From NCBI GenBank assembly GCA_015222405.1, contig JADFVG010000057.1:1-46341 (forward strand): DNA of 46,341 bases, read 5' to 3'. Shown piece by piece: positions 10,352-46,341 of this stretch. Below the pieces are notes generated by a model, which saw only the letters and a program-made list of their open reading frames with translations, did not search any database and was not told the DNA's origin. Every line of letters starts with the position of its first letter. Position 1 is the first letter of the stretch. Origin of the DNA: Chloroflexota bacterium (GTDB lineage: Bacteria > Chloroflexota > Dehalococcoidia > E44-bin15). Position numbers and translations under genes: made by a program.

Positions 10352-10427
<76 letters not shown>

Positions 10428-33806: not shown

Positions 33807-33844
33807 GGGGGGTGATGTGTCACTAATGTACTGGACGAGTACAA
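33807..33844. repeat. 38-bp repeat, copy A (IS-end relic), perfect inverted partner of 39610-39647
   Basis: GGGGGGTGATGTGTCACTAATGTACTGGACGAGTACAA is the exact reverse complement of 39610-39647. Weaker similarity continues inward to about 33780, with an 8-nt insertion in the G run. Confidence 0.9.
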
Positions 33845-33848
33845 GCCC

Positions 33849-33877
33849 TTTACAATTTGGCCAATAACCTGTATAAT
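33849..33877 (+). promoter_or_regulatory. sigma70-type promoter candidate for greA
   Basis: TTTACA (33849-33854), 17-nt spacer, consensus TATAAT (33872-33877). Confidence 0.55.
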
Positions 33878-33898
33878 ATGTAAAAATTAGATAGCCCT

Positions 33899-33929
33899 GA
33901 CTGAGGGTCGGCGACCTTCAGTCTTTTTT
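33899..33929 (+). terminator. intrinsic terminator / attenuator hairpin inside the greA leader
   Basis: GACTGAGGGTC ggc GACCTTCAGTC forms an 11-bp stem (one G-U) followed by TTTTTT. It lies between the promoter and the greA RBS (GGAGG, 33943-33947). Confidence 0.6.
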
Positions 33930-33954
33930 AGTAGCGGTGGCAGGAGGTACTACA

Positions 33955-34419
33955 ATGGCTGAAAAGGGGAATTTCCTTACACCAGAGGGCTTGGCAAAGC
34001 TTGAGGAGGAACTGCAACATCTGCGCACCGTCCGCCGCCAAGAGGTAGCGGAGAAGATTCAGAAGGCCAAGGAGCTGCGCAGCACTGTGAGTTCCCCGGA
34101 ATACGAGGATGCTAAGAACGAGCAGGGCTTCGTCGAGGGGAGAATCCTGGAACTGGAGAGGATCATAAAGAATGCAGTTATAATCCATCCTGAGGCCGCT
34201 GATTTGGTTCAGCTAGGGTCAAAGGTTACAGTACGCCATCAGGATGGCAGTGAGGAGCACTACACCATTGTCGGCAGCATTGAGGTAAATCCCGGCAAGG
34301 GCAAAATCTCTAACGAATCGCCTGTAGGCAAGGCTCTCCTGGGCAAGCGAGTAGGCAATGAGGTAAAGGTAACGGTTCCCGCAGGGGTGCTCAAGCTGAC
34401 GATAACGGAGATAAAGTAG
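33955..34419 (+). CDS. greA: transcription elongation factor GreA
   Basis: LTPEGLAKLEEEL..L, coiled-coil N-terminal domain, and C-terminal VTV....E..Y.IVG..E.....G.IS..SP.GKALLGK. I set the start at ATG 33955, after GGAGG; the track GTG at 33937 would include the RBS. Confidence 0.9.
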   Translation: MAEKGNFLTPEGLAKLEEELQHLRTVRRQEVAEKIQKAKELRSTVSSPEYEDAKNEQGFVEGRILELERIIKNAVIIHPEAADLVQLGSKVTVRHQDGSEEHYTIVGSIEVNPGKGKISNESPVGKALLGKRVGNEVKVTVPAGVLKLTITEIK

Positions 34420-34423
34420 AAAC

Positions 34424-35896
34424 ATGGCTCGAATAGATACCATAGTTCAACAGCGGCGGGATAAGCTCAGCAGAATTCGCCAGCGAGGCATCGACCCTTA
34501 CCCCCACCGCTGCCATCGCACCCATACTGTAAAGGAGGCTGTTATCCTTTTTGAGAAGTGGGAAGGAAGCGGTGATAACCCCCCCCTGGTGCACCTTTGT
34601 GGTCGCATAATGAGCTCTCGCCCCATGGGGAAAGCAACCTTCATCGATATTCGCGACGGCAGCGACAAGATCCAGTGCTATTTCCGCAGCGACTCCCTGG
34701 GGGAAGAGAAATATGAACTGCTCAAGGAGTTCGATATCGGGGACATCATTGGCGTCAGCGGCACGATGTTCAGGACACACAGTGGAGAGATCACCGTAGC
34801 TGCCTCCGATTTCTCCCTGCTCTGCAAGTCACTTCAGCCCCTGCCTGAGAAATGGCACGGGCTCACCGATGTTGAGAAGCGCTACCGGCAGAGATACCTC
34901 GACCTCATCTCCAATGAGGCGATTGCACCAATATTCAAGCTTCGAGCCAGGGTTATCGCCGCGATAAGGCGCTTCCTTGATAACCGAGGCTTTATCGAGG
35001 TGGAAACCCCGGTACTCCATTACGTTGCCACTGGAGCTAGGGCTCGCCCCTTCATCACCCATCATCAAGCCCTAGACCAGGACTTATATTTGCGCATCGC
35101 CACCGAGCTTCACCTCAAGCGACTCATCATTGGCGGTTTGGACAAGGTCTACGAGATTGGCCGCATTTTCCGTAACGAGGGCATCTCGACGAAGCATAAC
35201 CCTGAATTTACCATGCTCGAATGCTACGAAGCCTACAGCGACTACCACGATGTGATGAATTTGGTGGAGGAGATGATCTCCACTGTTGCCCAGGAGGTCC
35301 TAGGGACAACGAAGGTCAGCTTTGGTAGCACTGCCCTGGAGCTTTCAGCCCCGTGGCAGCGCATCACCCTGCGCGATGCCATCAAGGATGGATGTGGCAT
35401 TGATTTTGAGCAGCATCTGGACGAAGATTCCCTGCGCCGCCAGATGGAAGCCATGGGTTTAGACGTGTCTGATATCGGTGGCCGGGGAAAGCTGATCGAC
35501 CGCCTGATCACCAACTTTGTCGAACCCAATCTTATTCAACCCACCTTCGTCATCGACTACCCTGTTGAACTCTCGCCTCTGGCAAAGAGAAAGCCAGATA
35601 ACGACCATCTGGTGGAGAGGTTTGAGGCCTTTGCCGGAGAGATGGAGATCGCCAATGCCTTCACCGAGCTCAACGACCCCATCGAGCAGCGGGAGCGCTT
35701 TCAGCAGCAGATGCTCCAGCGCACCCTGGGGGATGAGGAGGCGGAGAGGGTAGAGGAGGACTTCCTAGTCGCATTAGAGCATGGCATGCCGCCCACAGGG
35801 GGTCTGGGACTGGGCATCGACCGCTTGGTAATGCTGCTCACCGAGCAGCACTCCATCCGTGAGGTAATCCTCTTTCCCCAGCTACGCTCTAAGTAA
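34424..35896 (+). CDS. lysS: lysine--tRNA ligase (class II)
   Basis: OB-fold N-terminus and class II motifs (RYRQRYLDL, FIEVETP, FRNEG, GGLGLGIDRLVML). Confidence 0.95.
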   Translation: MARIDTIVQQRRDKLSRIRQRGIDPYPHRCHRTHTVKEAVILFEKWEGSGDNPPLVHLCGRIMSSRPMGKATFIDIRDGSDKIQCYFRSDSLGEEKYELLKEFDIGDIIGVSGTMFRTHSGEITVAASDFSLLCKSLQPLPEKWHGLTDVEKRYRQRYLDLISNEAIAPIFKLRARVIAAIRRFLDNRGFIEVETPVLHYVATGARARPFITHHQALDQDLYLRIATELHLKRLIIGGLDKVYEIGRIFRNEGISTKHNPEFTMLECYEAYSDYHDVMNLVEEMISTVAQEVLGTTKVSFGSTALELSAPWQRITLRDAIKDGCGIDFEQHLDEDSLRRQMEAMGLDVSDIGGRGKLIDRLITNFVEPNLIQPTFVIDYPVELSPLAKRKPDNDHLVERFEAFAGEMEIANAFTELNDPIEQRERFQQQMLQRTLGDEEAERVEEDFLVALEHGMPPTGGLGLGIDRLVMLLTEQHSIREVILFPQLRSK

Positions 35897-35948
35897 AAGG
35901 GTTATACTGGCCACAGGCCAGAGATAATAAAGTCGAAGGAGGTGAGAA

Positions 35949-36446
35949 ATGCCTATTTGCACCCAATGTGGCACCGAGATACCAGAGGAGAGTAAGTTTT
36001 GCCCCAACTGCGGTGCCAAGGTGGTTGTGCCCAAGCCGCCGAAGATAAAGGAGGCCCCTGAAATTGGCGAGAGGGCATTTGGCGCGCCGGATCTGCTTGC
36101 CTTAATAGGCGCCCTGGCACTTCTTGTCGGCCCCTTTTTGCAATGGGCGGATGTTTTGGTATTGCCAACTCAGGGACTAGATTATGGCCAGGGGATAATC
36201 CTGTATGTAATGGGAGGTCTTTGCCTGGCAGCAGTGATCGTAGCCAGAAATCTGGGGCGTGTTTCTGGAATGGTCTATGTTGGTCTCGCCCTTTGCGCCC
36301 TGGCCATTGTCGGGCACTTTGTATACCACATATACGATATCGACCTCGATTGGGGAGATATAGCCTGGGGATTCTACGTAGCTGGGGCAGGAGCGGTATT
36401 AGTGCTTGTGGGAGGAATCTCAAGGCTCCTGATGAAGACGGAATAA
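35949..36446 (+). CDS. zinc-ribbon membrane protein
   Basis: N-terminal CTQCG...FCPNCG ribbon followed by about 4 hydrophobic helices. AGGAGGTG upstream. Confidence 0.6.
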   Translation: MPICTQCGTEIPEESKFCPNCGAKVVVPKPPKIKEAPEIGERAFGAPDLLALIGALALLVGPFLQWADVLVLPTQGLDYGQGIILYVMGGLCLAAVIVARNLGRVSGMVYVGLALCALAIVGHFVYHIYDIDLDWGDIAWGFYVAGAGAVLVLVGGISRLLMKTE

Positions 36447-36497
36447 TCAAAGTTGGTTATCTGACCAGAGCTGTGACCTGGAGGGAGGGGGATTTTT

Positions 36498-37757
36498 GTG
36501 CTCAGCCTGCAATTCATCCGTGAAAACCCCGATCTCGTTCGCAAGGCGCTGGAGAAGCGCCAGTTCAGCGAGCCCCTGGATGATATCCTGGTCCTAGATG
36601 AGCAGCGGCGCAGCCTGCTCCCTGAGGTAGAGGCACTGAGGGCAAAGCGCAACCAGGTGAGCAAGAAGCTGGGCAAGATGGATGAGAAGCCACCTCAGCT
36701 CATCGAGGAGATGCGGGAGATAGGGAACAGAATTAAGGCGCTGGACGGGCAGCTCAGGGCAACCGAGGAGCAGCTTAACGACCTCCTTTTGCGCATCCCC
36801 AATATCCCTCACCCCACCGTCCCGCTGGGCAGGGACGAAAGCGAAAACAGGGTTGTTAGAAGCTGGGGGGACGTGCGAAAATTCGATTTCAAACCCCTGC
36901 CCCACTGGGAGCTGGGCGAGAAATTGGGAATCATCGATTTTGTCCGCGGAGCTAAGCTCTCAGGCACCCGCTTCTATGTCCTCTGCGGGCTTGGGGCTCA
37001 CCTTCAGCGTGCCCTCATCTCCTTCATGCTCGACCTCCACATAACGGAGCATGGCTACACCGAGATATATCCCCCGTTCATGGTGAAGCGGGAGTGCATG
37101 ATAGGTTCAGGCAATCTGCCCAAATTTGCCGATAACCTGTACCACGACGAGGAGGATGACTTCTGGTTTGTGCCCACCGCCGAGGTGCCGCTAACTAACC
37201 TTCACCGCGATGAAATCCTGCCCCCGGGCACCCTCCCCATCTACTATGTGGCCTACACCGCCTGCTTTCGCCGCGAGAAGATGTCGGCGGGGAAGGATAC
37301 CAGAGGAATTAAACGGGGACATCAATTCGATAAGGTGGAACTGTACAAGTTTGTTGAGCCTGAAACTTCAGATGAAGAGCTGGAGAAGATGGTGAATAAC
37401 GCTGAGGAAGTCAGCCACCGGCTGGGCATCCCCTATCGAGTGCTGGAGCTATGTAGCGGTGATCTGGGCTTTGCCTCAACAAAATCTTACGATATTGAAA
37501 TGTGGGCTTCTGGCTGTGGCGAATGGCTCGAGGTCAGCTCCTGCTCCAATTGCGGCGATTTTCAGGCACGCCGTGCCAATACTCGCTTTCGTCCTGAGCC
37601 CGGGGCAGGACCCCGCTTCGTCCACACCCTAAACGGCTCAGGACTTGCCCTACCCCGTGTGGTCATCGCCCTGCTCGAGAACTATCAGCAGAGCGATGGC
37701 AGCATTATTGTACCCGAGGTACTCCGCCCCTATACTGGGTTTGGGGTCATCAGGTAA
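36498..37757 (+). CDS. serS: serine--tRNA ligase
   Basis: GTG start giving MLSLQFIRENP, an N-terminal coiled-coil arm, and class II motifs (FRRE, GSGLALPR). Confidence 0.95.
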   Translation: MLSLQFIRENPDLVRKALEKRQFSEPLDDILVLDEQRRSLLPEVEALRAKRNQVSKKLGKMDEKPPQLIEEMREIGNRIKALDGQLRATEEQLNDLLLRIPNIPHPTVPLGRDESENRVVRSWGDVRKFDFKPLPHWELGEKLGIIDFVRGAKLSGTRFYVLCGLGAHLQRALISFMLDLHITEHGYTEIYPPFMVKRECMIGSGNLPKFADNLYHDEEDDFWFVPTAEVPLTNLHRDEILPPGTLPIYYVAYTACFRREKMSAGKDTRGIKRGHQFDKVELYKFVEPETSDEELEKMVNNAEEVSHRLGIPYRVLELCSGDLGFASTKSYDIEMWASGCGEWLEVSSCSNCGDFQARRANTRFRPEPGAGPRFVHTLNGSGLALPRVVIALLENYQQSDGSIIVPEVLRPYTGFGVIR

Positions 37758-37780
37758 CCCGTTTATAGCGGAGGTTAACC

Positions 37781-38008
37781 ATGCAAACCATAGCATGTCC
37801 CCAGTGCGGGCAAGAGATTCAGGTGTTCCTCCTTGAGTCGGACTACCAAGGCCCCCTCAAATGCGCCAAGTGCAAGGGGCTGTTTAAGGTCAGGATAGAG
37901 GGCGAGAAGCTCAAATCCTGGGAGCCAATGACGGAGGAGGAACTGAAGGCTGCCCAGGAAATGGAAGCCTTGAAAGCCAAATTTAGGCGCAGTCCAACCA
38001 GTGATTGA
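37781..38008 (+). CDS. small zinc-ribbon protein
   Basis: CPQCG...CAKCKG Cys4 pattern, GGAGG upstream, 23 nt after serS. Confidence 0.45.
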   Translation: MQTIACPQCGQEIQVFLLESDYQGPLKCAKCKGLFKVRIEGEKLKSWEPMTEEELKAAQEMEALKAKFRRSPTSD

Positions 38009-38159
38009 AGAATACCATGATGCTTCCTCAGAAACAAATTACCCGGCCCATTGACTAAAAGAACATAGTACGGATACAGCGCTAAACGGACGCCGAACAT
38101 CTATCCGGTTGCAGCCCCGGTTACAGCCTAAGTAGTAACGACGGCGATGTTCGCCCTTG

Positions 38160-39539
38160 CTATGCGAGAGGAAAGTGCTCGTCCATGAACTCAATAGCGC
38201 TATTGATGCATAGCTCGATGCCGACGCCAGTACCTCCGGCTTCGCCCCCCACGATGTACAGACCCTCGATGGGCGTCTTTATCTTGGGCCGCTTATCCCC
38301 AACCTGACCTACTATCTGAGCGATGCCAATGCCGGCTCCATCTTCGCCCAACGTGTTCGCAAGGTCATCGGGGGTCATGGTATTTGTCCATAAAGTATGC
38401 TGCCGCAGCCCGGGGACAATTGATTCCGTCGTGTTGATTATGGCTTCTGCCAATGCTTCCTTCAACTCTTTCGGTGCCCCCCTCCCGAGGCCACCGCTAA
38501 CAACACAGATCAACTGCTTTCCTTCAGGAGCGACTTTAGTGGAGAAGTTGGAGGGGACAACCACCATAAGGCCTAGCTCGTCGGGTATTATGCCGCTCTG
38601 AAGTTTTTTAGCGTAGGCTTCCCTATCGAAAGTGGCGATATGGCCCAGCATCATGATATCGGTCAGCTTCTTATCTAGTGCAATTCGTACTACCGTGGCA
38701 CCACCCCCCGAGTATCGGAGCCCCTTGACATAGTCCACGTAGTCGGACTGGAAATGGTCGGCGCCCACCAGATTCAGAACCGTGTTCTTGATGTCAGCAT
38801 TGGAGACTACCACATCCGACTGGTAGACTTCGTCTCCAACCATCACACCATTGACACTGCCCCTTCCCACCTCAATCTTCTGGACTTCGGCTCCCAACTT
38901 GATCTCGCCGCCGAACTTTCTTATCCCATCTCCATAGGCGTCAGAGATAGCGCTGCAGCCCCCATCAGGGTAGCCCGATGCCCTGGTTTCGGCCTCCCAC
39001 TTAAAGCAGCGCATGAATTCACCCGTGCTGGCAAGCGAGATAGGAGAACCAGTATAGATGCCAGAGATGCTTTCGACCCAACCGTGGATCATTGGCTCCT
39101 CAGTGTACTGGGAGAGATACGTTTGCAGGTACACGTCATCGTATTCTTTCATCTTCTCCTCTGGCATAAAGCGGATCTCTCCGAGAAAGTTCATCAGGCC
39201 GTTGAAGTCCTTCTCCGACACCATTTCTTTGAAATCGTGGGGGAAGGTAAGGACCTTGCCCTGATAGCTGGAACGGGGCCGGACCTTGATATACTGGATG
39301 GGGTCCGGTATTCCAACGCGACGCAGCACATCGCCAGTGGGACCCTTATCACTTCTGGATATGAGGTGAACTCCTAAATCGACGTGGAAACCACGCCTGT
39401 CAAACGATGATAGCCTTCCTCCGAGAAACCTGTGCTTTTCCAGGAGCAAGGTCTTCCGGCCTCGATGTGAAAGCATAAGGGCAGCCGCCAAGCCACCAAT
39501 TCCCGCCCCAACTACGATGGCATCATACTTCTCAGCCAT
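38160..39539 (-). CDS. FAD-dependent oxidoreductase, phytoene desaturase (CrtI) family
   Basis: N-terminal dinucleotide fold YDAIVVGAGIGGLAAAL...LLLEK....GGR, 459-aa length, and a C-terminal GL.IVGG motif. Confidence 0.85.
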   Translation of the reverse strand: MAEKYDAIVVGAGIGGLAAALMLSHRGRKTLLLEKHRFLGGRLSSFDRRGFHVDLGVHLISRSDKGPTGDVLRRVGIPDPIQYIKVRPRSSYQGKVLTFPHDFKEMVSEKDFNGLMNFLGEIRFMPEEKMKEYDDVYLQTYLSQYTEEPMIHGWVESISGIYTGSPISLASTGEFMRCFKWEAETRASGYPDGGCSAISDAYGDGIRKFGGEIKLGAEVQKIEVGRGSVNGVMVGDEVYQSDVVVSNADIKNTVLNLVGADHFQSDYVDYVKGLRYSGGGATVVRIALDKKLTDIMMLGHIATFDREAYAKKLQSGIIPDELGLMVVVPSNFSTKVAPEGKQLICVVSGGLGRGAPKELKEALAEAIINTTESIVPGLRQHTLWTNTMTPDDLANTLGEDGAGIGIAQIVGQVGDKRPKIKTPIEGLYIVGGEAGGTGVGIELCINSAIEFMDEHFPLA

Positions 39540-39609
39540 TGTCTTGTTCCCTCCTAACGTAAGAATTCCATGCGCCAGAGTAGCACAGCAGCGTACTGAT
39601 GTCCAGATG

Positions 39610-39647
39610 TTGTACTCGTCCAGTACATTAGTGACACATCACCCCCC
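39610..39647. repeat. 38-bp repeat, copy B (IS terminal inverted repeat relic)
   Basis: TTGTACTCGTCCAGTACATTAGTGACACATCACCCCCC is the exact reverse complement of 33807-33844. It contains the stop codon of the transposase relic. Confidence 0.9.
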
Positions 39648-39790
39648 CCTTTGTTTTTGATTCCACCGCTCCAGGAGCTGGAGTGGAGTTAAGTAGCCCA
39701 GAGCCTGATGTGGCCTTATCGTGGGTCTGCTCCCATCTCAACAGCTCACCCTCTAACCCAGCAATGTTAGAGGATTCATATTGCTCGCCG
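39639..39790 (-). pseudogene. C-terminal relic of an rve (DDE integrase-core) transposase
   Basis: The minus strand reads RPHQALGYLTPLQLLERWNQKQRGG-stop (39716 down to 39639). This is the conserved RPH.ALGY.TP tail of IS3/IS481-type transposases. Upstream, ELLRWEQTHDK is in a different frame and stop codons follow, so only a frameshifted stub remains. Confidence 0.5.
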
Positions 39791-39945
39791 TGGCCCTGAT
39801 GCGGGCAATATCATTGGCACGGCATAGAAATTCGCCCCACTTTCGGTTATAATAGCCTGCGGTCATCGATGATTAGCACAGGCTATCCTGCAACCCGAGC
39901 AAAACTATGACATTCTTGGGATCGCTTCCTGCTGGCTTTAGTTGG

Positions 39946-39984
39946 GGAGGGGTGACCGAGCGGTTTATGGTGGCGGTCTTGAAA
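39946..39984 (+). pseudogene. 5' half of tRNA-Ser (anticodon UGA), truncated right after the anticodon loop
   Basis: GGAGGGG TG ACCG AGCGGTTTA TGGT G GCGGT CTTGAAA gives the acceptor strand, a class-II type D arm, a stem strand and a loop with TGA. The following TTCGA cannot pair with GCGGT. No variable arm, T arm or 3' acceptor strand is present downstream. Confidence 0.75.
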
Positions 39985-40103
39985 TTCGAAACCCTTTGTT
40001 CCACCCTATGCTGTTAGCTATGATTCTGTGCCTCTGTGTTGGACTGTCGCGGTGATTTCGTATCTGGGCATACCATCTTGTGCCGGGGGGTGCTCAGGAG
40101 TTC

Positions 40104-40123
40104 GTTAGCAAAATGTTAGCAAA
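40104..40123 (+). repeat. GTTAGCAAA tandem direct repeat (2 copies, 11-nt period)
   Basis: GTTAGCAAA at 40104-40112 and 40115-40123. The two copies flank the ATG of the XRE-like ORF. Confidence 0.6.
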
Positions 40124-40328
40124 TCCAGAGGAGGATCGGCTCCAATTATACCAGCTATCCCAAGAAGAGTTTGTCGGCAAAGTGTAGGCAAACGTCAGCA
40201 CGCTTCAGAGGATGTCACTAGCAACAACAACTACAGCCCAGTCACTGCTTGCTAAACCACGCCGGATAATCAAAGGTCTACGAGGAGAATTCTACTACAC
40301 GGATGGCGGTCATCAACTCCTTCTTTGA
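40113..40328 (+). pseudogene. XRE/Cro-like HTH ORF interrupted by an in-frame TAG
   Basis: MLANPEEDRLQLYQLSQEEFVGKV-TAG(40185)-ANVSTLQRMS...stop 40326-40328. LSQEEF..K..x..VST..R fits the helix-turn-helix of XRE-family repressors, and the stop sits at the turn position. Confidence 0.3.
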
Positions 40329-40475
40329 TTGATTATCACCCAACTTCTATATCATATCATTTTTATCCATTATTTTTGAAATAGAATTCTTGCATTTTTT
40401 GTATCTATTTAGATGGGGGGCCCCTCACCCCTCTACTAGCTACGATTTCGGGGGAGGAATTCCCCGTTATAAGCG

Positions 40476-40532
40476 GGTAAACCATATATGGTAAACGATA
40501 AGGTAAACGCTATGGTAAACGTCATGGTAAAC
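40476..40532 (+). repeat. five direct GGTAAAC repeats with about 12-nt period (iteron or arm-site-like array)
   Basis: GGTAAAC at 40476, 40490, 40502, 40514 and 40526. The last three are ATGGTAAAC. Confidence 0.85.
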
Positions 40533-40719
40533 CCAGAAAAGCTCACATAGGTCATAGGCTCAAGCGATTGAATCCTTTATACAAGGGCCTCCTTGATTTC
40601 ACAGCTTTGTCTTTTGTTCAAAAGAGTAGAAGGCCTCAACTTCGTGCTCTGCTCCACGGGGGAATCAACGGGGGAAAGGGTCAGGCTATGATCGTTCCCG
40701 CGCTACCGGGTGCCTGGAC

Positions 40720-40911
40720 CTAGTGTTCCTTTATCCACTGAATCAGTTCTTCTTTCAGAAAGACCCGCTTTTTTCCAATTTTGTGTGAGGGCAAACCCTC
40801 CTTCATCAGTTTGTACAGCGTTTGATGGCTTACCCCAAGGAATTCTTGAGCCTCCTGAAAGGTTAGAAAAATTCGCTCGACATCCCGTGAGCGCGCACTT
40901 TCTTCTGCCAC
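40720..40911 (-). CDS. excisionase / MerR-type HTH DNA-binding protein (63 aa)
   Basis: LTFQEAQEFLGVSHQTLYKLMKEGLPSHKIGKKRVFLKEELIQWI is the HTH_17 excisionase-family pattern. I set the start at GTG 40911, with AAGGAGG 7 nt upstream; the track ATG at 40986 adds an implausible hydrophobic leader. Confidence 0.75.
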   Translation of the reverse strand: MAEESARSRDVERIFLTFQEAQEFLGVSHQTLYKLMKEGLPSHKIGKKRVFLKEELIQWIKEH

Positions 40912-40989
40912 CTGCTGGCCTCCTTGAACTAGAATGTATATTAGCCACTTGCTACTAATTAGGCACAACTGGACGGAAATAGACACAGC

Positions 40990-41018
40990 TTGACAAATAT
41001 CGTATGTTTATTTACGAT
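40990..41018 (+). promoter_or_regulatory. sigma70-type promoter candidate for the 41106 / 41956 genes
   Basis: TTGACA (40990-40995), 17-nt spacer, TACGAT (41013-41018), in the divergent intergenic region. Confidence 0.4.
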
Positions 41019-41105
41019 TCAGACATAAAGAATGGAAATGTCCCCCAAGAAAGCAACTTGATGCACCAAGCGAAGTGAGCGCGGGAAAGGCGCGGATAAA
41101 CGATC

Positions 41106-41657
41106 ATGAACGTGTCCAGCCATCGGATTTGGGGTAGTCTGCAGGATAGTCTTCGAGACCTCATTCTTGAGGGCGTCGAGCGTGGATGGATGTCTGCAAG
41201 GTCATGGGACGACCTGCAAAGGGAAATTGCCAATCAGTTCAAGCAGCAGCTTGCGCCTTCGATAGTCCGTGAGAACGTCCCACTATCCGTACTAGGAGTT
41301 GCTGGTTCTAACGCCCAGATAGATATCGTATTGGGTAACCTAGCGGAGAAAGGATTGGGTGGGTTCCTGATTCACATAAGTGGGCACACGTTGCCTAGGC
41401 ATGAAAAGGAACTGCTGGAAATCATGGCTGTATCGCTCGCGGATGCTAGGTTTGCATACGGTGTGCTTGTTGTATGCTCCGATAACCGGCTTCGATTGGA
41501 GGGAAGAGCTACCTCTTTTGCGTATTGTGGCGGGCCGTTAATACGACTAGCGGCGCCTATTTTGGGTCGTTGCAACCTGCTTGGCCTCCTCGTAGTCGGG
41601 CTGCCCACGCCACCATACACCCCGGGGGTGAGTTTGACCCCTCACCAGAGGGCGTGA
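41106..41657 (+). CDS. hypothetical protein (183 aa), orphan partner of the MCM-like ATPase
   Basis: Intact ORF, no clear RBS, no recognised domain. IDIVLGN...LIHISGH...HEKELLE could be a degenerate nuclease-like core, but this is not demonstrable by eye. Confidence 0.5.
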   Translation: MNVSSHRIWGSLQDSLRDLILEGVERGWMSARSWDDLQREIANQFKQQLAPSIVRENVPLSVLGVAGSNAQIDIVLGNLAEKGLGGFLIHISGHTLPRHEKELLEIMAVSLADARFAYGVLVVCSDNRLRLEGRATSFAYCGGPLIRLAAPILGRCNLLGLLVVGLPTPPYTPGVSLTPHQRA

Positions 41658-41955
41658 CCGGGACGGAGCATGGCGTTAGCGATTGGCCTCAGCGCTGGAT
41701 CGGCAAGTAGGCCGAGCAGAGGAGAACACGTGGAAGGCTAGCTCCCCTAATGCTAAACTTGAACGCACTCTTTTCCTGAAAATATCTTGGCTTTCACGTG
41801 GTATCGTCCTATCTGAACTTGTTTGCCGGAGTTACTATGCCCCATGATCATGATAAGGAACGGAGCAGTTTCAAGTCCTTGGAGATCTAGGGTTGACCAG
41901 GAAAAAGATCTCCATTGGTCGTACCCTCTCACATTGTTACTAGGAGGTGAGCAAG

Positions 41956-42867
41956 ATGATCCTTAACCAAAAGCAGCGGGACGCGTTATTCAACATCCTT
42001 GAGTACGAGCAGACCCACGACCCCGAAGAGTTCAGCTTGGGGTGGAGTTGGACTGATGTCCGGGTTGCGCCAGCCACCTTAAACAATCTACTACTAAAAG
42101 GACTGCTAGAGGAGAAATTCCACTCAAATAGCTATAGAGGATTGCCACTTACTGAACTGGGTCGTGAGCAGGCAAACCTTCTGGAAGAGCCAGCAGAGGC
42201 TTATGAGAAGCCTCTGGATGAAAGCCTGACGCTGCCCAATGACATGTTCCAGGACATCATAGGCCATGATGATGTGAAGGAACTCTTGACGGCTGCACTT
42301 CTTGTGGAAAAGCCTGTGCACGTGTTGTTGGCAGGGCCACCGGCACTCGCCAAATCTTTGTTTCTCTGGGGTATAGAGCGAGTATGCGGTGAGCAAGCAG
42401 TATGGCTTGTGGGCTCGGCGACAAGCAAGGCGGGGCTGTGGGACCTAGTAGCAGAACGCGAGCCACGGATTCTACTTATAGATGAGCTCGATAAGATGAA
42501 CGCTGCTGACACCGCAGCCCTACTCAGCTTGATGGAAGGCGGAAGGCTAGTGCGGGCCAAGAAAGGTAGGGCGCTTGACGTTACTGTTCCCATCAAGGTG
42601 GTAGCAGCCACAAACCAAGTGGCCAAGTTGTCTCCAGAACTGATGTCCAGATTTGCCATACGAAAGCTGGAAGCCTACGACACAGTGCAATATCGCACAG
42701 TGGTTAAAGGGGTATTGATACGTCGTGAGAATGTCAGCCCTGAGCTTGCCGAGGAGATAGCCCGTAAGCTTGAGGGGAGGACTCAGGATGTAAGAGATGC
42801 GGTAAGAGTGGCTCGTTTGAGCCCACAGTTAGGGATTGATAAGACGATCCGCTTGCTTCTGCCTTGA
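41956..42867 (+). CDS. wHTH-AAA+ ATPase with MCM-clade motifs (mini-MCM-like)
   Basis: AGGAGG lies 8 nt before ATG 41956. Motifs: IIGHDDVKELL, Walker A GPPALAKS, GSATSKAGL, Walker B LLIDELDKM, LMEGG...RAKKG, sensor-1 VVAATN, Arg-finger LMSRF. See findings. Confidence 0.75.
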   Translation: MILNQKQRDALFNILEYEQTHDPEEFSLGWSWTDVRVAPATLNNLLLKGLLEEKFHSNSYRGLPLTELGREQANLLEEPAEAYEKPLDESLTLPNDMFQDIIGHDDVKELLTAALLVEKPVHVLLAGPPALAKSLFLWGIERVCGEQAVWLVGSATSKAGLWDLVAEREPRILLIDELDKMNAADTAALLSLMEGGRLVRAKKGRALDVTVPIKVVAATNQVAKLSPELMSRFAIRKLEAYDTVQYRTVVKGVLIRRENVSPELAEEIARKLEGRTQDVRDAVRVARLSPQLGIDKTIRLLLP

Positions 42868-42969
42868 CGGATTTTGCGCTCACCGAAACGGTATCCGAAG
42901 CTGAGCACCAATCTCTAGATTCAGTTGGTACTCTTTCCGCTTCTGATAATTGTGTTGGCGGTTGGGTAA

Positions 42970-43000
42970 TAGAGTCACAATCCGATGGATTGTGACTCTA
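42970..43000 (+). terminator. 14-bp perfect stem-loop, candidate terminator after the MCM-like gene
   Basis: TAGAGTCACAATCC gat GGATTGTGACTCTA, followed by TATTT. It lies about 100 nt after the stop at 42867. Confidence 0.5.
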
Positions 43001-43117
43001 TATTTGCACGCTGGAGGCAAAGGCGATCAAAAAAGTCAACAAAGCTAATGACAAGCGCAGCAAAGGTGTGGTACAATCACAGCCGCTAGCAAAGAATGTT
43101 GCAGGAGGTAAGGGAAG

Positions 43118-43618
43118 ATGGCGATCATTGATACCCTGAAAAGCTCTGAGCTCTTTGAGGGCTTGGAGACAGGCCATTTGGAAAAGGTCTCGGTTCTGTG
43201 CCGTGGGGGCTCCTACAAGGAAGGGATGATGGTCTTCAAGGAGGGGGATGAAGCGGCGGAGTTCTACGTTCTGACAGGCGGCAGGGTGGCGCTGGAGATG
43301 GAGGTGTGCCCTGTGCCCGACCGTCCCGCCATACCCACGGCGGTGGAGGTGGTCACCAAAGGCGACTGCTTTGGTTGGTCGGCCCTCGTTGAGCCTCACG
43401 TATACACGTTGTCTGCCCGGTGCATGACCAACTGCACAGTGCTAGCCATCAAGGGTGACATGCTTCGCAAGGCTATGGCTGATGACCCTAGTCTGGGCTA
43501 TCAAGCGATGAAAAAACTGACCCAACTTGTCTCCCTCCGGCTTGCGCATACCCGGCTCCGCCTCATCAGCGGGCTCGGTCTGCTCCTGCTAGGCAAGGAG
43601 CTAGAGTTATCTGAGTAA
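43118..43618 (+). CDS. stand-alone cyclic-nucleotide-binding (CAP effector) domain protein
   Basis: LFEGLETGHLEKV...G..VFKEGDEAAEFYVL..G.V.......GDCFGWSAL is the cNMP-binding beta-barrel pattern. At 166 aa it has no DNA-binding or other output domain. An extended -10 promoter candidate (TGgTACAAT) sits at 43069-43077. Confidence 0.8.
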   Translation: MAIIDTLKSSELFEGLETGHLEKVSVLCRGGSYKEGMMVFKEGDEAAEFYVLTGGRVALEMEVCPVPDRPAIPTAVEVVTKGDCFGWSALVEPHVYTLSARCMTNCTVLAIKGDMLRKAMADDPSLGYQAMKKLTQLVSLRLAHTRLRLISGLGLLLLGKELELSE

Positions 43619-44119
43619 TCCGTTTTCCAGATGGAACGCAAGCACTCTCAGTTTTCGAAGAGGAAATTACCCGGACAAGCCCCCAAGAGGTTCCGGGAAG
43701 CTGTCTGGGAGGAGAAACAAGGCCAGCACCAAAATGTTTACAGTAGGTAAGAGTTAAAGCCGGCTTTATAGGGTATCAGGATTATCAAAGAGGCTGGGTA
43801 TCGTCCTGGGAAGAGCCAGCCTCTTCGTTAGGGATTGCACAACGTGGCTAATTGTCTAGTCCGGTAATGGCTACTTCCAGAAACGCTCTTATCTCAACGG
43901 ATAGCATCTTACAGCTTCCTGATAAGATCGCGCCGCTTCTGCTCGTCACCTACTACCTGCTGCTTCAGCCTTTTCCAAGTATTGGGACAGTCTGTGAAGG
44001 TAACCTCAACTACTTGATGAATGGCCTGGTCAATCTGCTTCCTATTGCCAGGAGCAACCTCAATACTGGCCTCATCTAGAATATCCTTTATATGACGAAA
44101 AATGGCAGGACATGAAATA

Positions 44120-45571
44120 TTACCTTATCGGCAATGGTTGCCCGAGAAAGGAGTCTACCCACCAGAAGATGTCGCGTTTCTGGATCGATTTGCGGAGTCT
44201 TCGCATTCGTGATCGCCGTTCATCCCTACTCATATTATATGCTCGATGGATTGCGTTGGCTACGCCTTCAATATCATACGGGTTCACCAGTAGCGAATTT
44301 CTACGCAACTGAGTTGCTGCACCGGCAAATTCACTAAGTATTAGCACACCGTTTGTATCTACCTTAGCCGCACAATACTCCTTTGCTACCAAGTTCATTC
44401 CATCTTTCAGGGGTGTGACCAGAGCGATCTCAGCAGCACGATAATATGCGAGAAGCTCAGTGCGTTCCAGATTCCGAAACATGTACTGAATCGGTATCCA
44501 GCCCGGCTGGGTAAATTTGCCATTAATCTCACTCACTAGGCCCTCGATCTCGGTTTTTAGCTCCCGATACTCCGGTATATCCTCTCGACTAGGCACCACA
44601 ATTTGAACCAGCGTTACCTTGCCCTGTAGATCGTCGAAACGCTCCAGGGTATTTCTGAACGCTTGCAATTTCTCTGGAATACCCTTGGAGTAATCCAAAC
44701 GATCTACACCCAGGATGATCTGGCAGTTGGGTATGGCCTCATATAGCAGACTGGCTCTTTCCGCTACGCTCTTGGCTGCCGCCTGTCGGGCAAACTCATT
44801 GAAGTCTATGCTAATTGGGAAAACGCCAACCCTGATTTCTCGGTTTGGCACAGTGATTGTAGATACTTGCCTTCTAGTGTCGTAACGGATGCTCTTGATC
44901 AGGGCTTCGACGCAATGGATGAAGTTGTTTCTGTCACGTGTGGTCTGAAAACCAATGAGGTCGTACTCCAACAAGGCTCGCAGAATCTGCAACCGCCACG
45001 GCAGTTTAATGAAGATATCGAGTGGGGGAAAGGGGATGTGGAGGAAGAATCCGATCTTGCACTCCAGTTCCATGCCACGCAATTCCTTGGCCACGAGCGT
45101 GAGGTGGTAGTCGTGAACCCAAATGTAATCATTCATTCCAGTGTTCTGTGCTATCACCTGCGCGAATTTACAATTGACCGCTTGGTACATATTCCAATAA
45201 GCGGGATCGAAATTGCAGCGCGATTGCATATCGTGGAAAAGTGGCCATATGATTTCGTTGGAGAATCCGAAATAGTATTGATTCGCCTCTTCCGCAGTTA
45301 GTTTGACTGGCTTAAGTATATATCCTGCATCCTGGCTCCCTATGGCCACTAGCCCATCCAGGTCAACCTCCTCCACCGTTCCCGGCCAGCCAATCCATAG
45401 GCCTCCCCGGTCACGCAAGACCGGAGCCAGGGCAGTAACCAATCCACCTGAGCCGGGCTGAACCTGCCAGTCCCCCAGATCCCCTTTTGTTAGGACGATG
45501 GGCAGGCGATTTGAAACAATCACAAGCCGATCCACCCTTAAGTTATTGCTTTGGTCTCTCGGGTGCGACAT
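44120..45571 (-). CDS. otsA: alpha,alpha-trehalose-phosphate synthase (GT20)
   Basis: [32 protein letters not shown], and the C-terminal LVNPYD motif. Confidence 0.9.
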
Positions 45572-45863
45572 GGATTCAACCTTTCACCAAATTACCAATT
45601 ACCAAAGCAGCGTCCTAGAACGGCTACCGGCAGAGATAGTGGCCCGAAGGTCGGGACGGGACACGCTTTACGCTCTCGGTGAGGAACTTGACATTGCAAC
45701 CTCGGGTTCAGCGGGTGAACTACACTCGACCGATGCTAATGGTTGAGGGTGATGGCTCGAGTGTCTGTTGAACTCGCTGAACTCGACACATTATAGCAAC
45801 AACGGGGAATACGTGCAATCGCCGTTTCATAATTTTTGGCCCAGGCTTGTGCTCTGCGACATA

Positions 45864-45892
45864 TTGACAAATAGCCTCATCCCTTTTATTAT
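45864..45892 (+). promoter_or_regulatory. sigma70-type promoter candidate for the LEA-like gene
   Basis: TTGACA (45864-45869), 17-nt spacer, TATTAT (45887-45892). Confidence 0.45.
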
Positions 45893-45931
45893 TATATCAG
45901 CTAATATAATCACCATCATGGGAGAGGTTAA

Positions 45932-46327
45932 ATGGACATAAGCGAGGAATTGAAGAGAGCCGCAGCCAAGGTAAGGGAAGGGATAGCAGAGACTATAGCA
46001 GGTAGTGGTGAGATAGTAGACTCTGTCAAGAAGGGAGCTACGGAGGCCAGTGGTAGGGCGCTGGAGAAAACCCAGAAAGCTCTGGCTAAGGTTAAGGAGA
46101 CATTAGCGGAGGCAGAAACGAAATCAGCCAAAGAGGCTGAGGCGACAAAGGTTATCGTTAAGGAATACTTAGACAACGCCGGGCAGGCGATAACCGATGC
46201 TGGGGAGGAATTAGCAAGAGCCGGAGCTCAGGTAAAGGCTAAATCCATAGAGGGAACCGAAAAAGCTGTTGATAAAGTTCGAAAGGCGTTAGACAAGGTT
46301 GAAGAGCTAATAGCTAAAATCAAGTAA
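45932..46327 (+). CDS. low-complexity Ala/Lys/Glu-rich helical protein (LEA / YtxH / phasin-like)
   Basis: 131 aa with no Cys or Trp and a repetitive amphipathic A/K/E/G pattern. GGAGAGG upstream. Divergent from otsA. Confidence 0.6.
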   Translation: MDISEELKRAAAKVREGIAETIAGSGEIVDSVKKGATEASGRALEKTQKALAKVKETLAEAETKSAKEAEATKVIVKEYLDNAGQAITDAGEELARAGAQVKAKSIEGTEKAVDKVRKALDKVEELIAKIK

Positions 46328-46341
46328 TGCCCAGTTTAGAT

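Follow-up and report, generated by a model that had tools for sequence, protein, structure and literature searches.

The 46,341-nucleotide stretch analyzed here (contig JADFVG010000057.1, referred to below as the window) is a chromosome segment of a bacterium of the Dehalococcoidia (Chloroflexota), and it carries the 5' half of a tRNA-Ser(UGA) gene with no 3' half. We conclude that this orphan half very likely represents the left attachment site (attL) of an element whose tyrosine integrase targets the 5' part of a tRNA gene, and that the element was later truncated at this locus. What remains would be a dead attL followed by a 3-kb piece of the element, which appears unable to excise. The evidence comes from the tRNA fragment itself, from related loci in which both ends of such inserts are visible, and from the point at which element-type homology gives way to chromosomal homology on the right. 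Related contigs are designated by L numbers.

The orphan half and its ancestral locus

In the fragment at 39946-39984, GGAGGGGTGACCGAGCGGTTTATGGTGGCGGTCTTGAAA, the acceptor strand is followed by a D arm of class II and then by the 5' anticodon-stem strand and the loop CTTGAAA, which contains the anticodon UGA. At 39 of 39 positions it agrees with nt 1-39 of the intact tRNA-Ser(UGA) copies that L090, L071, L075, L051, L085 and L014 carry, and its likeness to a tRNA is therefore not a matter of chance. The sequence directly 3' of position 39984, TTCGAAACC, is unable to pair with the anticodon-stem strand. The sole tRNA of the window is tRNA-Arg(TCT) at 10352-10427, on which ARAGORN and Rfam concur; neither ARAGORN nor Rfam at its gathering threshold calls a tRNA over 39946-39984, and a permissive Rfam search (E ≤ 10) of positions 39000-46341 gave no match to tRNA or intron families. 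A pattern search of both strands of the window for the 3' half (T arm plus CCCCTCC) or for k-mers of the 39-nt fragment found no match. DNA past the end of the window is available from L001 and L117, which extend 4.5 kb further, and on the 99.8%-identical contig no 3' half of tRNA-Ser is present in those 4.5 kb. An initial annotation, made from the letters of the window, had described an orphan 5' half of tRNA-Ser(UGA), beyond which the sequence stops being tRNA and no T arm or CCCCTCC follows downstream, and each of these statements agrees with the results above.

The arrangement is not a product of assembly. The left junction occurs in five independent assemblies and the right junction in at least eight, and contig JAUWGO010000157.1 of an NCBI metagenome-assembled genome (MAG) is 100% identical to window positions 39612-43617. 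Because the junctions are present in several independent assemblies, we regard the structure as genuine, and as fixed in a population of which several sites were sampled.

In order to reconstruct the locus before integration we compared it with related loci. In seven of them serS is followed by an intact tRNA-Ser(UGA), with a small zinc-ribbon gene (zn75) between the two in six. The genes greA and lysS lie upstream of serS in L090 and L051, and sucC-sucD-surE lie downstream of the tRNA in L090 and L071. The alignment of the window with L090 covers 33844-38033 and 39772-39984 and stops at the final base of the 5' half. With L071 and L075, as with L090, base 39984 is the last to show homology. 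An alignment with close relatives, which the initial annotation had proposed, thus does reveal the empty site, an intact tRNA-Ser(UGA) at the serS locus. The genes sucC, sucD and surE are absent from the window and from the 99.8%-identical contig that runs 4.5 kb further. The DNA around a promoter-like site at 39825-39853 is kept in relatives with an intact tRNA. Between the zinc-ribbon gene and the tRNA locus the window also carries, on the minus strand (38034-39771), a gene for a 459-amino-acid FAD amine-oxidase/phytoene-desaturase-like protein; the closest relatives, L090, L071 and L075, have no counterpart of this gene and carry about 180 bp in its place.

The codon UCA is in normal use (37 of 5119 codons across 12 window genes), and some tRNA-Ser(UGA) must therefore exist elsewhere in the genome. 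The half itself could be imagined as a working part of such a tRNA, either as a split tRNA joined in trans, as in Nanoarchaeum, or as the first exon before a very long intron. The break beside the anticodon loop is near the canonical position of archaeal introns, the half agrees with functional genes at 39/39 positions whereas identity to L090 is only about 89% over the 175 nt that precede it, and the promoter-like upstream region is retained. We give this explanation hardly any credence. The host is bacterial (greA, class II lysS), and we know of no tRNA trans-splicing system in bacteria. Neither a separate 3' half gene of the Nanoarchaeum type nor a 3' exon is found in the 6.4 kb to the end of the window or in the 4.5 kb beyond, and no intact or intron-bearing tRNA model starting at 39946, whether of group I or of archaeal type, was obtained with ARAGORN or with Rfam at E ≤ 10 over 39000-46341. 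Identical orphan halves are redundant elsewhere, where complete genes follow them at a distance of a few hundred to a few thousand bp, and a recent event accounts for the perfect identity.

Duplicated 5' halves, the integrase and the attachment site

We scanned public metagenome and genome contigs with a pattern running from the D loop to the anticodon loop of the tRNA-Ser 5' half and recovered 83 intact and 12 orphan copies, the window being one of the orphans. All 12 orphans terminate after CTTGAAA and continue into unrelated DNA that falls into a few families. Both ends are visible at three loci, where the order is orphan half, insert and, on the right, intact tRNA, with a spacing between orphan and intact copy of 5414 bp in CAWKAJ010000002.1, 3350 bp in L013 and 381 bp in L011. 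The direct repeat is exactly tRNA nt 1-39, beginning at +1, in CAWKAJ010000002.1 and L011; in L013 it measures 84 nt and consists of the native promoter region (45 nt further upstream) together with tRNA nt 1-39. The repeats at these loci therefore indicate that the insert duplicates the 5' half and that a complete gene stays at its right end. The duplicated segment and the orphan fragment are both the 5' part of the tRNA, as in the subclass of elements that target the 5' part of their tRNA gene.

These loci also bear on a simpler explanation, in which an insertion split the tRNA without duplication, so that the 3' half would lie at the other end of the insert and the gene would be destroyed. 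Only one half is visible in the window, as this would require, but each of the three two-ended loci shows a complete tRNA at the right end, a duplicated 39-nt 5' half and no 3' half, and the normal use of UCA means that a tRNA-Ser(UGA) is needed somewhere. We consider a plain split very improbable. The suggestion in the initial annotation that the gene had been destroyed is right in that the copy at this locus is gone; the loss is better attributed to truncation of the element than to the integration itself.

The inserts differ in content. The 3.35-kb insert of L013 (7243-10593, contig Ga0315274_10000216) holds one gene, for an 853-amino-acid SIR2-like and STAND NTPase protein that is defence-like, and no integrase. 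L011 (1320-1750) is a minimal remnant in which the DNA between the halves contains one arm-type repeat pair, AATGTTAGTGAAATGTTAG. Another tRNA is affected in L106 (9746-9783; also L107 and L108), where the orphan 5' half of a tRNA-Arg(UCG)-like gene follows directly after an intact tRNA-His and has the anticodon loop CTTCGGA as its last part. On its 3' side lie an arm homologous to that of L010, a TTAGCAAAATGTTAGCAA pair as in the window, and then an AAA+ gene. An arm of the window type thus stands beside an orphan tRNA-Arg half, and the element family therefore targets more than one tRNA. No intact tRNA-Arg is found within 11 kb downstream of the L106 half.

A recombinase gene lies at the right end. 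In CAWKAJ010000002.1 the intact tRNA is immediately preceded by a gene of the same orientation, which stops about 50 nt upstream of it and encodes a protein of 322 amino acids with Phage_integrase and SAM-like N-terminal domains. With tblastn we found full-length homologues 55-70 nt upstream of the intact tRNA in eight loci (L021, L023, L027, L031, L046, L052, L067 and L096) and C-terminal integrase remnants at the equivalent position in ten more. Short C-terminal remnants accompanied by arm-type repeats lie directly 5' of an intact tRNA-Ser(UGA) in L007, L018, L020, L045, L047, L057, L062, L064, L073 and L081; such persistence would be expected if the remnant DNA now serves as the tRNA promoter. 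The recurrent orphans, the two-ended relatives and the integrase beside the intact tRNA together bear out the initial annotation in taking the cut tRNA for the footprint of a tyrosine integrase. It had seen no integrase in the window, and indeed no homologue is found there or in L117; the integrase that it supposed might lie beyond 46341 did not appear in the 4.5 kb past the window. Nor is there a direct tRNA repeat at both ends: the window and the 4.5 kb beyond it contain a single att copy, which therefore belongs to a truncated relic and not to a complete element.

Short repeats of the kind found at arm-type integrase sites accompany both types of copy. Paired 8-9-mers with an 11-nt period occur in 10 of the 12 orphans, at a distance of +108 to +120 from the loop; only L044 and L011, whose sole pair is at -73 from its intact tRNA, depart from this. 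Such pairs stand at -59 to -73 before 14 intact tRNAs, most of which have an integrase or a remnant of one upstream. The repeated sequence varies by subfamily (TTAGTGCCA, ATTAGCTAA, TTAGCAAA, GTTAGTAA and TGTTAGTGAAA), and in all three subfamilies seen on both sides the motif is common to both arms (TTAGTGCCA, ATTAGCTAA and TTAGCAAA). The window pair, GTTAGCAAAATGTTAGCAA, lies at +120 from the loop and includes two copies of TTAGCAAA at 40105-40122, and the window therefore has the repeated arm-type sites, putatively bound by integrase, that flank the core in its relatives. The 24-mer of the window also adjoins the orphan tRNA-Arg half in L106-L108, and in L052 it is found between the integrase stop codon and the intact tRNA-Ser.

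Together these positions would give an attP in which the integrase gene comes first, followed by arm sites at -60, by tRNA nt 1-39 and by a further set of arm sites at +110 to +120. The 7-nt anticodon loop is probably the overlap region in which crossover occurs, since the identity block ends at the 3' edge of the loop; it would then correspond to the overlap of classical elements that use anticodon-loop sites. At the integrase-linked loci the DNA 5' of the intact tRNA is element DNA, made up of the integrase 3' end and arm sites, and in L052 an extended -10-like sequence, TGTGGTAGAAT, which may be a promoter, lies 9 nt before tRNA +1. We also looked for the orphan-type junction GGTGGCGGTCTTGAAAT in viral contigs; the 30 matches were all chance occurrences inside unrelated sequence.

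The element remnant and its right boundary

As judged from sequence comparison, the element of the window is a truncated remnant of 3 kb that extends from 39985 to about 42990. Its features and those adjoining it are listed in Table 1.

Table 1. Features of the truncated element and of its two boundaries in the window.
Feature	Position	Strand	Remarks
Promoter-like site TAGAAA-17-TATAAT	39825..39853	+	Chromosomal DNA 5' of the orphan half; putative promoter
Orphan 5' half of tRNA-Ser(UGA), nt 1-39	39946..39984	+	Chromosomal half of the attL junction; last base just past the anticodon loop
Element arm beside the core (P'-type)	39985..40301	+	Repeat pairs GTTAGCAAAATGTTAGCAA (40104-40122) and TGTAGGCAAAG x2 (40172-40192)
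Origin-like block	40302..40533	+	A+T-rich at about 40330-40400; G+C palindrome TGGGGGGCCCCTCA (40414-40427); iterons; putative origin
HTH_17 gene, excisionase/regulator-like	40720..40986	-	Pfam PF12728, E=5e-13; matches PHROG excisionase families
orf183	41106..41657	+	183 amino acids; no family match
AAA+ ATPase	41947..42867	+	306 amino acids; RuvB/MCM-like P-loop domain; N-terminal domain of about 95 amino acids
Perfect palindrome, 15-bp arms	42969..43001	.	ATAGAGTCACAATCC GAT GGATTGTGACTCTAT; spans the right boundary of element-derived DNA

The initial annotation had taken the block to the right of the half for mobile-element DNA, with a stretch poor in open reading frames (ORFs), locally A+T-rich and carrying two kinds of tandem repeat, followed by a helix-turn-helix (HTH) gene, an orphan gene and an MCM-like AAA+ gene. 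This description stands. No gene is called in 39985-40720, the repeats are the two copies of TTAGCAAA and five GGTAAAC iterons with a 12-nt period at 40476-40533, and the genes are confirmed by the Pfam and PHROG matches, orf183 being the one without a family. The HTH_17 protein has 88 amino acids from a GTG start and 63 according to gene callers. The exact orf183 protein is present on 13 contigs, and in the places shown it has the window arrangement in 10 of 10.

The AAA+ protein is a putative replication initiator or helicase of the element. It has more than 1600 homologues, and those with a source name are from Dehalococcoidia; integrases, serine recombinases, primases, helicase or CRISPR genes lie near the homologues in five of the six distinct arrangements fetched. 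An iteron block is found directly 3' of the AAA+ gene in the relatives L099, L101, L102 and L106. A module made up of the AAA+ gene, the A+T-rich stretch, the GGGGGGCCCC palindrome and the GGTAAAC iterons recurs at 77-90% nucleotide identity across many Dehalococcoidia contigs with differing flanking genes (window 40302-40533 and 41918-42996; L099 9994-11212; L101; L102 9664-11018; L106 9988-11296), and it resembles a replication module shared by a large mobile-element family.

The iterons are exactly where several assemblies are interrupted, with contigs that start at 40474-40521. In one strain of the window's species (L121 881-1724) a 67-bp deletion corresponding to window 42497-42563 divides the AAA+ gene into ORFs of 181 and 105 amino acids, which fits a decaying remnant. 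The sequence TGGCGGTCATCAA at 40304-40316 resembles an anticodon arm and was considered as a second, degenerate att core; we rejected it, as it is part of a conserved stretch of the AAA+/origin module and the likeness is weaker in relatives.

On the right, element-type homology stops at 42960 (with L103) or 42996 (with L102), and homology to the region of a cyclic nucleotide (cNMP)-binding gene in element-free relatives begins at 42990 (L114-L116, 86%) or 42978 (L113, 95%). The two sides have in common TTGTGAC (42990-42996), a 7-nt microhomology in the right arm of the palindrome. Upstream, L113 and L114 have flanks that bear no relation to one another and do not occur in the window, and there is no L113/L114 homology 5' of TTGTGAC. 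Orthologues of the cNMP-binding gene in the distant relatives L109 and L111 have ordinary chromosomal neighbors (relA, lexA, rpsT and a DUF169 gene). On the basis of the homology switch, the unrelated flanks and the ordinary neighbors, we take the right junction for the product of illegitimate recombination at a microhomology, and not for an att site, and the DNA to the right of about 42990 would accordingly be chromosome. In the closest element-free relative, L113, only the inner 6 bp of the left arm of the palindrome are kept.

We also considered an attP/attB core at the right junction, where L102 and L113 share 14 of 19 nt, and did not adopt it as our main interpretation, as the left side of the origin block has no matching core. 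The absence of the L113 and L114 upstream flanks from the window, with no shared homology 5' of TTGTGAC, is a further point against a site-specific origin, and microhomology is the simpler explanation.

The position of this boundary is also what decides against a larger element that would run past the end of the window, with the integrase and an intact tRNA-Ser at a distant right end, as the initial annotation had envisaged. That proposal was right about the tRNA in so far as complete members of the family do have it intact at the right end. Gene order downstream of the cNMP-binding gene is poorly conserved among relatives, and the L106 half likewise lacks a partner within 11 kb, both of which would suit a large element. 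However, element homology ends at 42960-42996, and the DNA from 42978 or 42990 onward is 86-95% identical to the cNMP region of relatives whose upstream DNA is unrelated and does not belong to an element. The housekeeping neighbors of the orthologues in L109 and L111 speak for chromosome, the genes further right are ordinary (otsA, a yggS-like gene and others), neither tRNA nor integrase is encoded in the 4.5 kb past the window, and complete elements of the family measure only 0.4-5.4 kb. We therefore regard a long element as improbable, if somewhat less so than a plain split of the tRNA.

Under our preferred history of integration followed by truncation, a small integrative element with a tyrosine integrase would have entered the tRNA-Ser(UGA) gene downstream of serS. 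The attP of the family would carry a copy of tRNA nt 1-39 about 60 nt 3' of the integrase gene, so that integration would strand the chromosomal 5' half at the left end as attL and, at the right end, combine the element's 5' half with the chromosomal 3' half into a complete tRNA. The integrase gene would then end directly 5' of the rebuilt tRNA and read towards it, and the paired arm repeats on both arms, together with the HTH_17 excisionase-like protein, may set the direction of the reaction. Later, illegitimate recombination would have joined the DNA just 3' of the AAA+ gene to the chromosome about 120 bp ahead of the cNMP-binding gene, at the 7-nt microhomology within the palindrome. Through this event the locus would have lost the integrase, the rebuilt tRNA-Ser and the genes that originally lay downstream, sucC-sucD-surE, either by deletion or by transfer to another place. 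Since a tRNA-Ser(UGA) must exist elsewhere in the genome, we favor relocation of the integrase/tRNA part by rearrangement over its simple deletion.

Several observations weigh against this history. The intact tRNA-Ser(UGA) of the species has not been located (its MAG GCA_030606365.1 is not among the matches of the genome scan), and both deletion and relocation fit the data. An integrase and a second att copy have never been seen for elements of the arm/origin/HTH_17/orf183/AAA+ type, and the original right part is reconstructed from other subfamilies. The order of AAA+ gene and iteron block in the window is circularly permuted relative to all contiguous relatives; the simplest reading of the permutation would be a small circular replicon with the integrase/att module between the AAA+ gene and the origin block. 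L113 shares 12 nt more with the window (42978-42989) than L114 does, which can also be read as a conserved recombination core and not as a scar. Finally, the recombination and excision steps and the transcription of the tRNA from element DNA are proposals based on nucleotide and protein comparisons.

Comparison with known elements and significance

The usual target of recombination is the 3'-distal part of tRNA genes, and PMC6563490, which cites Zhao & Williams 2002 among others, describes targeting of the 5'-distal part as "considerably less frequent" and known from a handful of cases in bacteria and archaea. The archaeal cases given there are those of Krupovic & Bamford 2008, Gaudin 2014 and Cossu 2017 (pTN3-like), and CalSub-E1 in tRNA-Ser. 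The initial annotation, in stating that such elements normally leave a 3' fragment and that a stranded 5' half is not the textbook picture, was correct in general, but 5' targeting is a documented if rare class (PMC6563490). A 5' orphan is therefore the expected footprint of the window family and no anomaly in itself, and the unusual appearance is due to the rare polarity combined with later truncation. The window element is a further case of this known, rare kind.

The closest comparison is with elements of "reversed target gene orientation" (Zhao & Williams 2002 J Bacteriol 184:859), as the title of that work and the citations of it describe them. Both duplicate the 5' part of a tRNA as att, leave a displaced chromosomal 5' fragment at one end and involve a tyrosine integrase, and in both the 5' half of the regenerated gene comes from the element, which would necessarily supply its upstream region too. 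Compared with the cases listed in these sources, ours is a bacterial family in Dehalococcoidia that targets tRNA-Ser(UGA) and at least tRNA-Arg(UCG) as well, and its integrase gene stops 50-70 nt 5' of the tRNA and reads towards it. Classical anticodon-loop islands and prophages with a tyrosine integrase (sublocation class I of Williams 2002 NAR 30:866) have in common with our family the anticodon loop as the end of the identity block, repeats of arm type on either side, a gene for an excisionase-like HTH protein and variable cargo (SIR2-STAND in L013, for instance). Their polarity is the opposite: it is the 3' part that is duplicated, and the fragment stranded at the far end is a 3' one.

In Thermococcus, partial tRNA genes have been parted from their partners by inversion (T. 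kodakarensis, PMC9897764; integrase-driven inversions, PMC5495485). As in those cases, the window has a partial tRNA gene derived from integration with no full-length partner nearby; unlike them, its second breakpoint is not an att site and lies at a 7-nt microhomology in a palindrome 3' of the AAA+ gene. The Dehalococcoides islands at ssrA and tRNA genes (PMC2764846, PMC3146451) belong to the same bacterial class and are likewise bordered by a small RNA gene and by a partial copy of it in direct repeat. In contrast to the window family, they duplicate 3' ends (a 58-bp 3' fragment of tRNA-Arg; 20 bp of ssrA), and the set of recombination genes at ssrA is different. We found no description of this Dehalococcoidia family in the literature searched, which is absence of evidence only.

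For genome annotation, an orphan 5' tRNA half is a reliable marker of the left end of islands of this Dehalococcoidia family, and tools that consider 3' fragments only would miss them. The copy in the window is a dead relic with no mechanism of its own, and its value lies mainly in giving a way into this family with its conserved AAA+/iteron replicon module. The biological consequence is that the 5' half of an essential tRNA gene, together with the DNA upstream of it, is exchanged for element DNA, on which expression of the tRNA would then depend; element decay, as in the window, can strand or remove the tRNA gene. We put forward one more speculative possibility, which taken as a whole is unlikely though less remote than the alternatives weighed above. 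The only tRNA-Ser(UGA) gene of the species may have left the serS-linked locus together with the integrase half, by element-mediated relocation or capture on an episome, with its 5' half and promoter derived from the element; in a wider view, Dehalococcoidia may contain a large and so far undescribed family of mini integrative replicons (origin, AAA+, excisionase and integrase) whose integration rewrites 5' halves and promoters at several tRNA genes. If the sole tRNA-Ser(UGA) was indeed carried off with the element, the decoding of UCA by the host would depend on element DNA.

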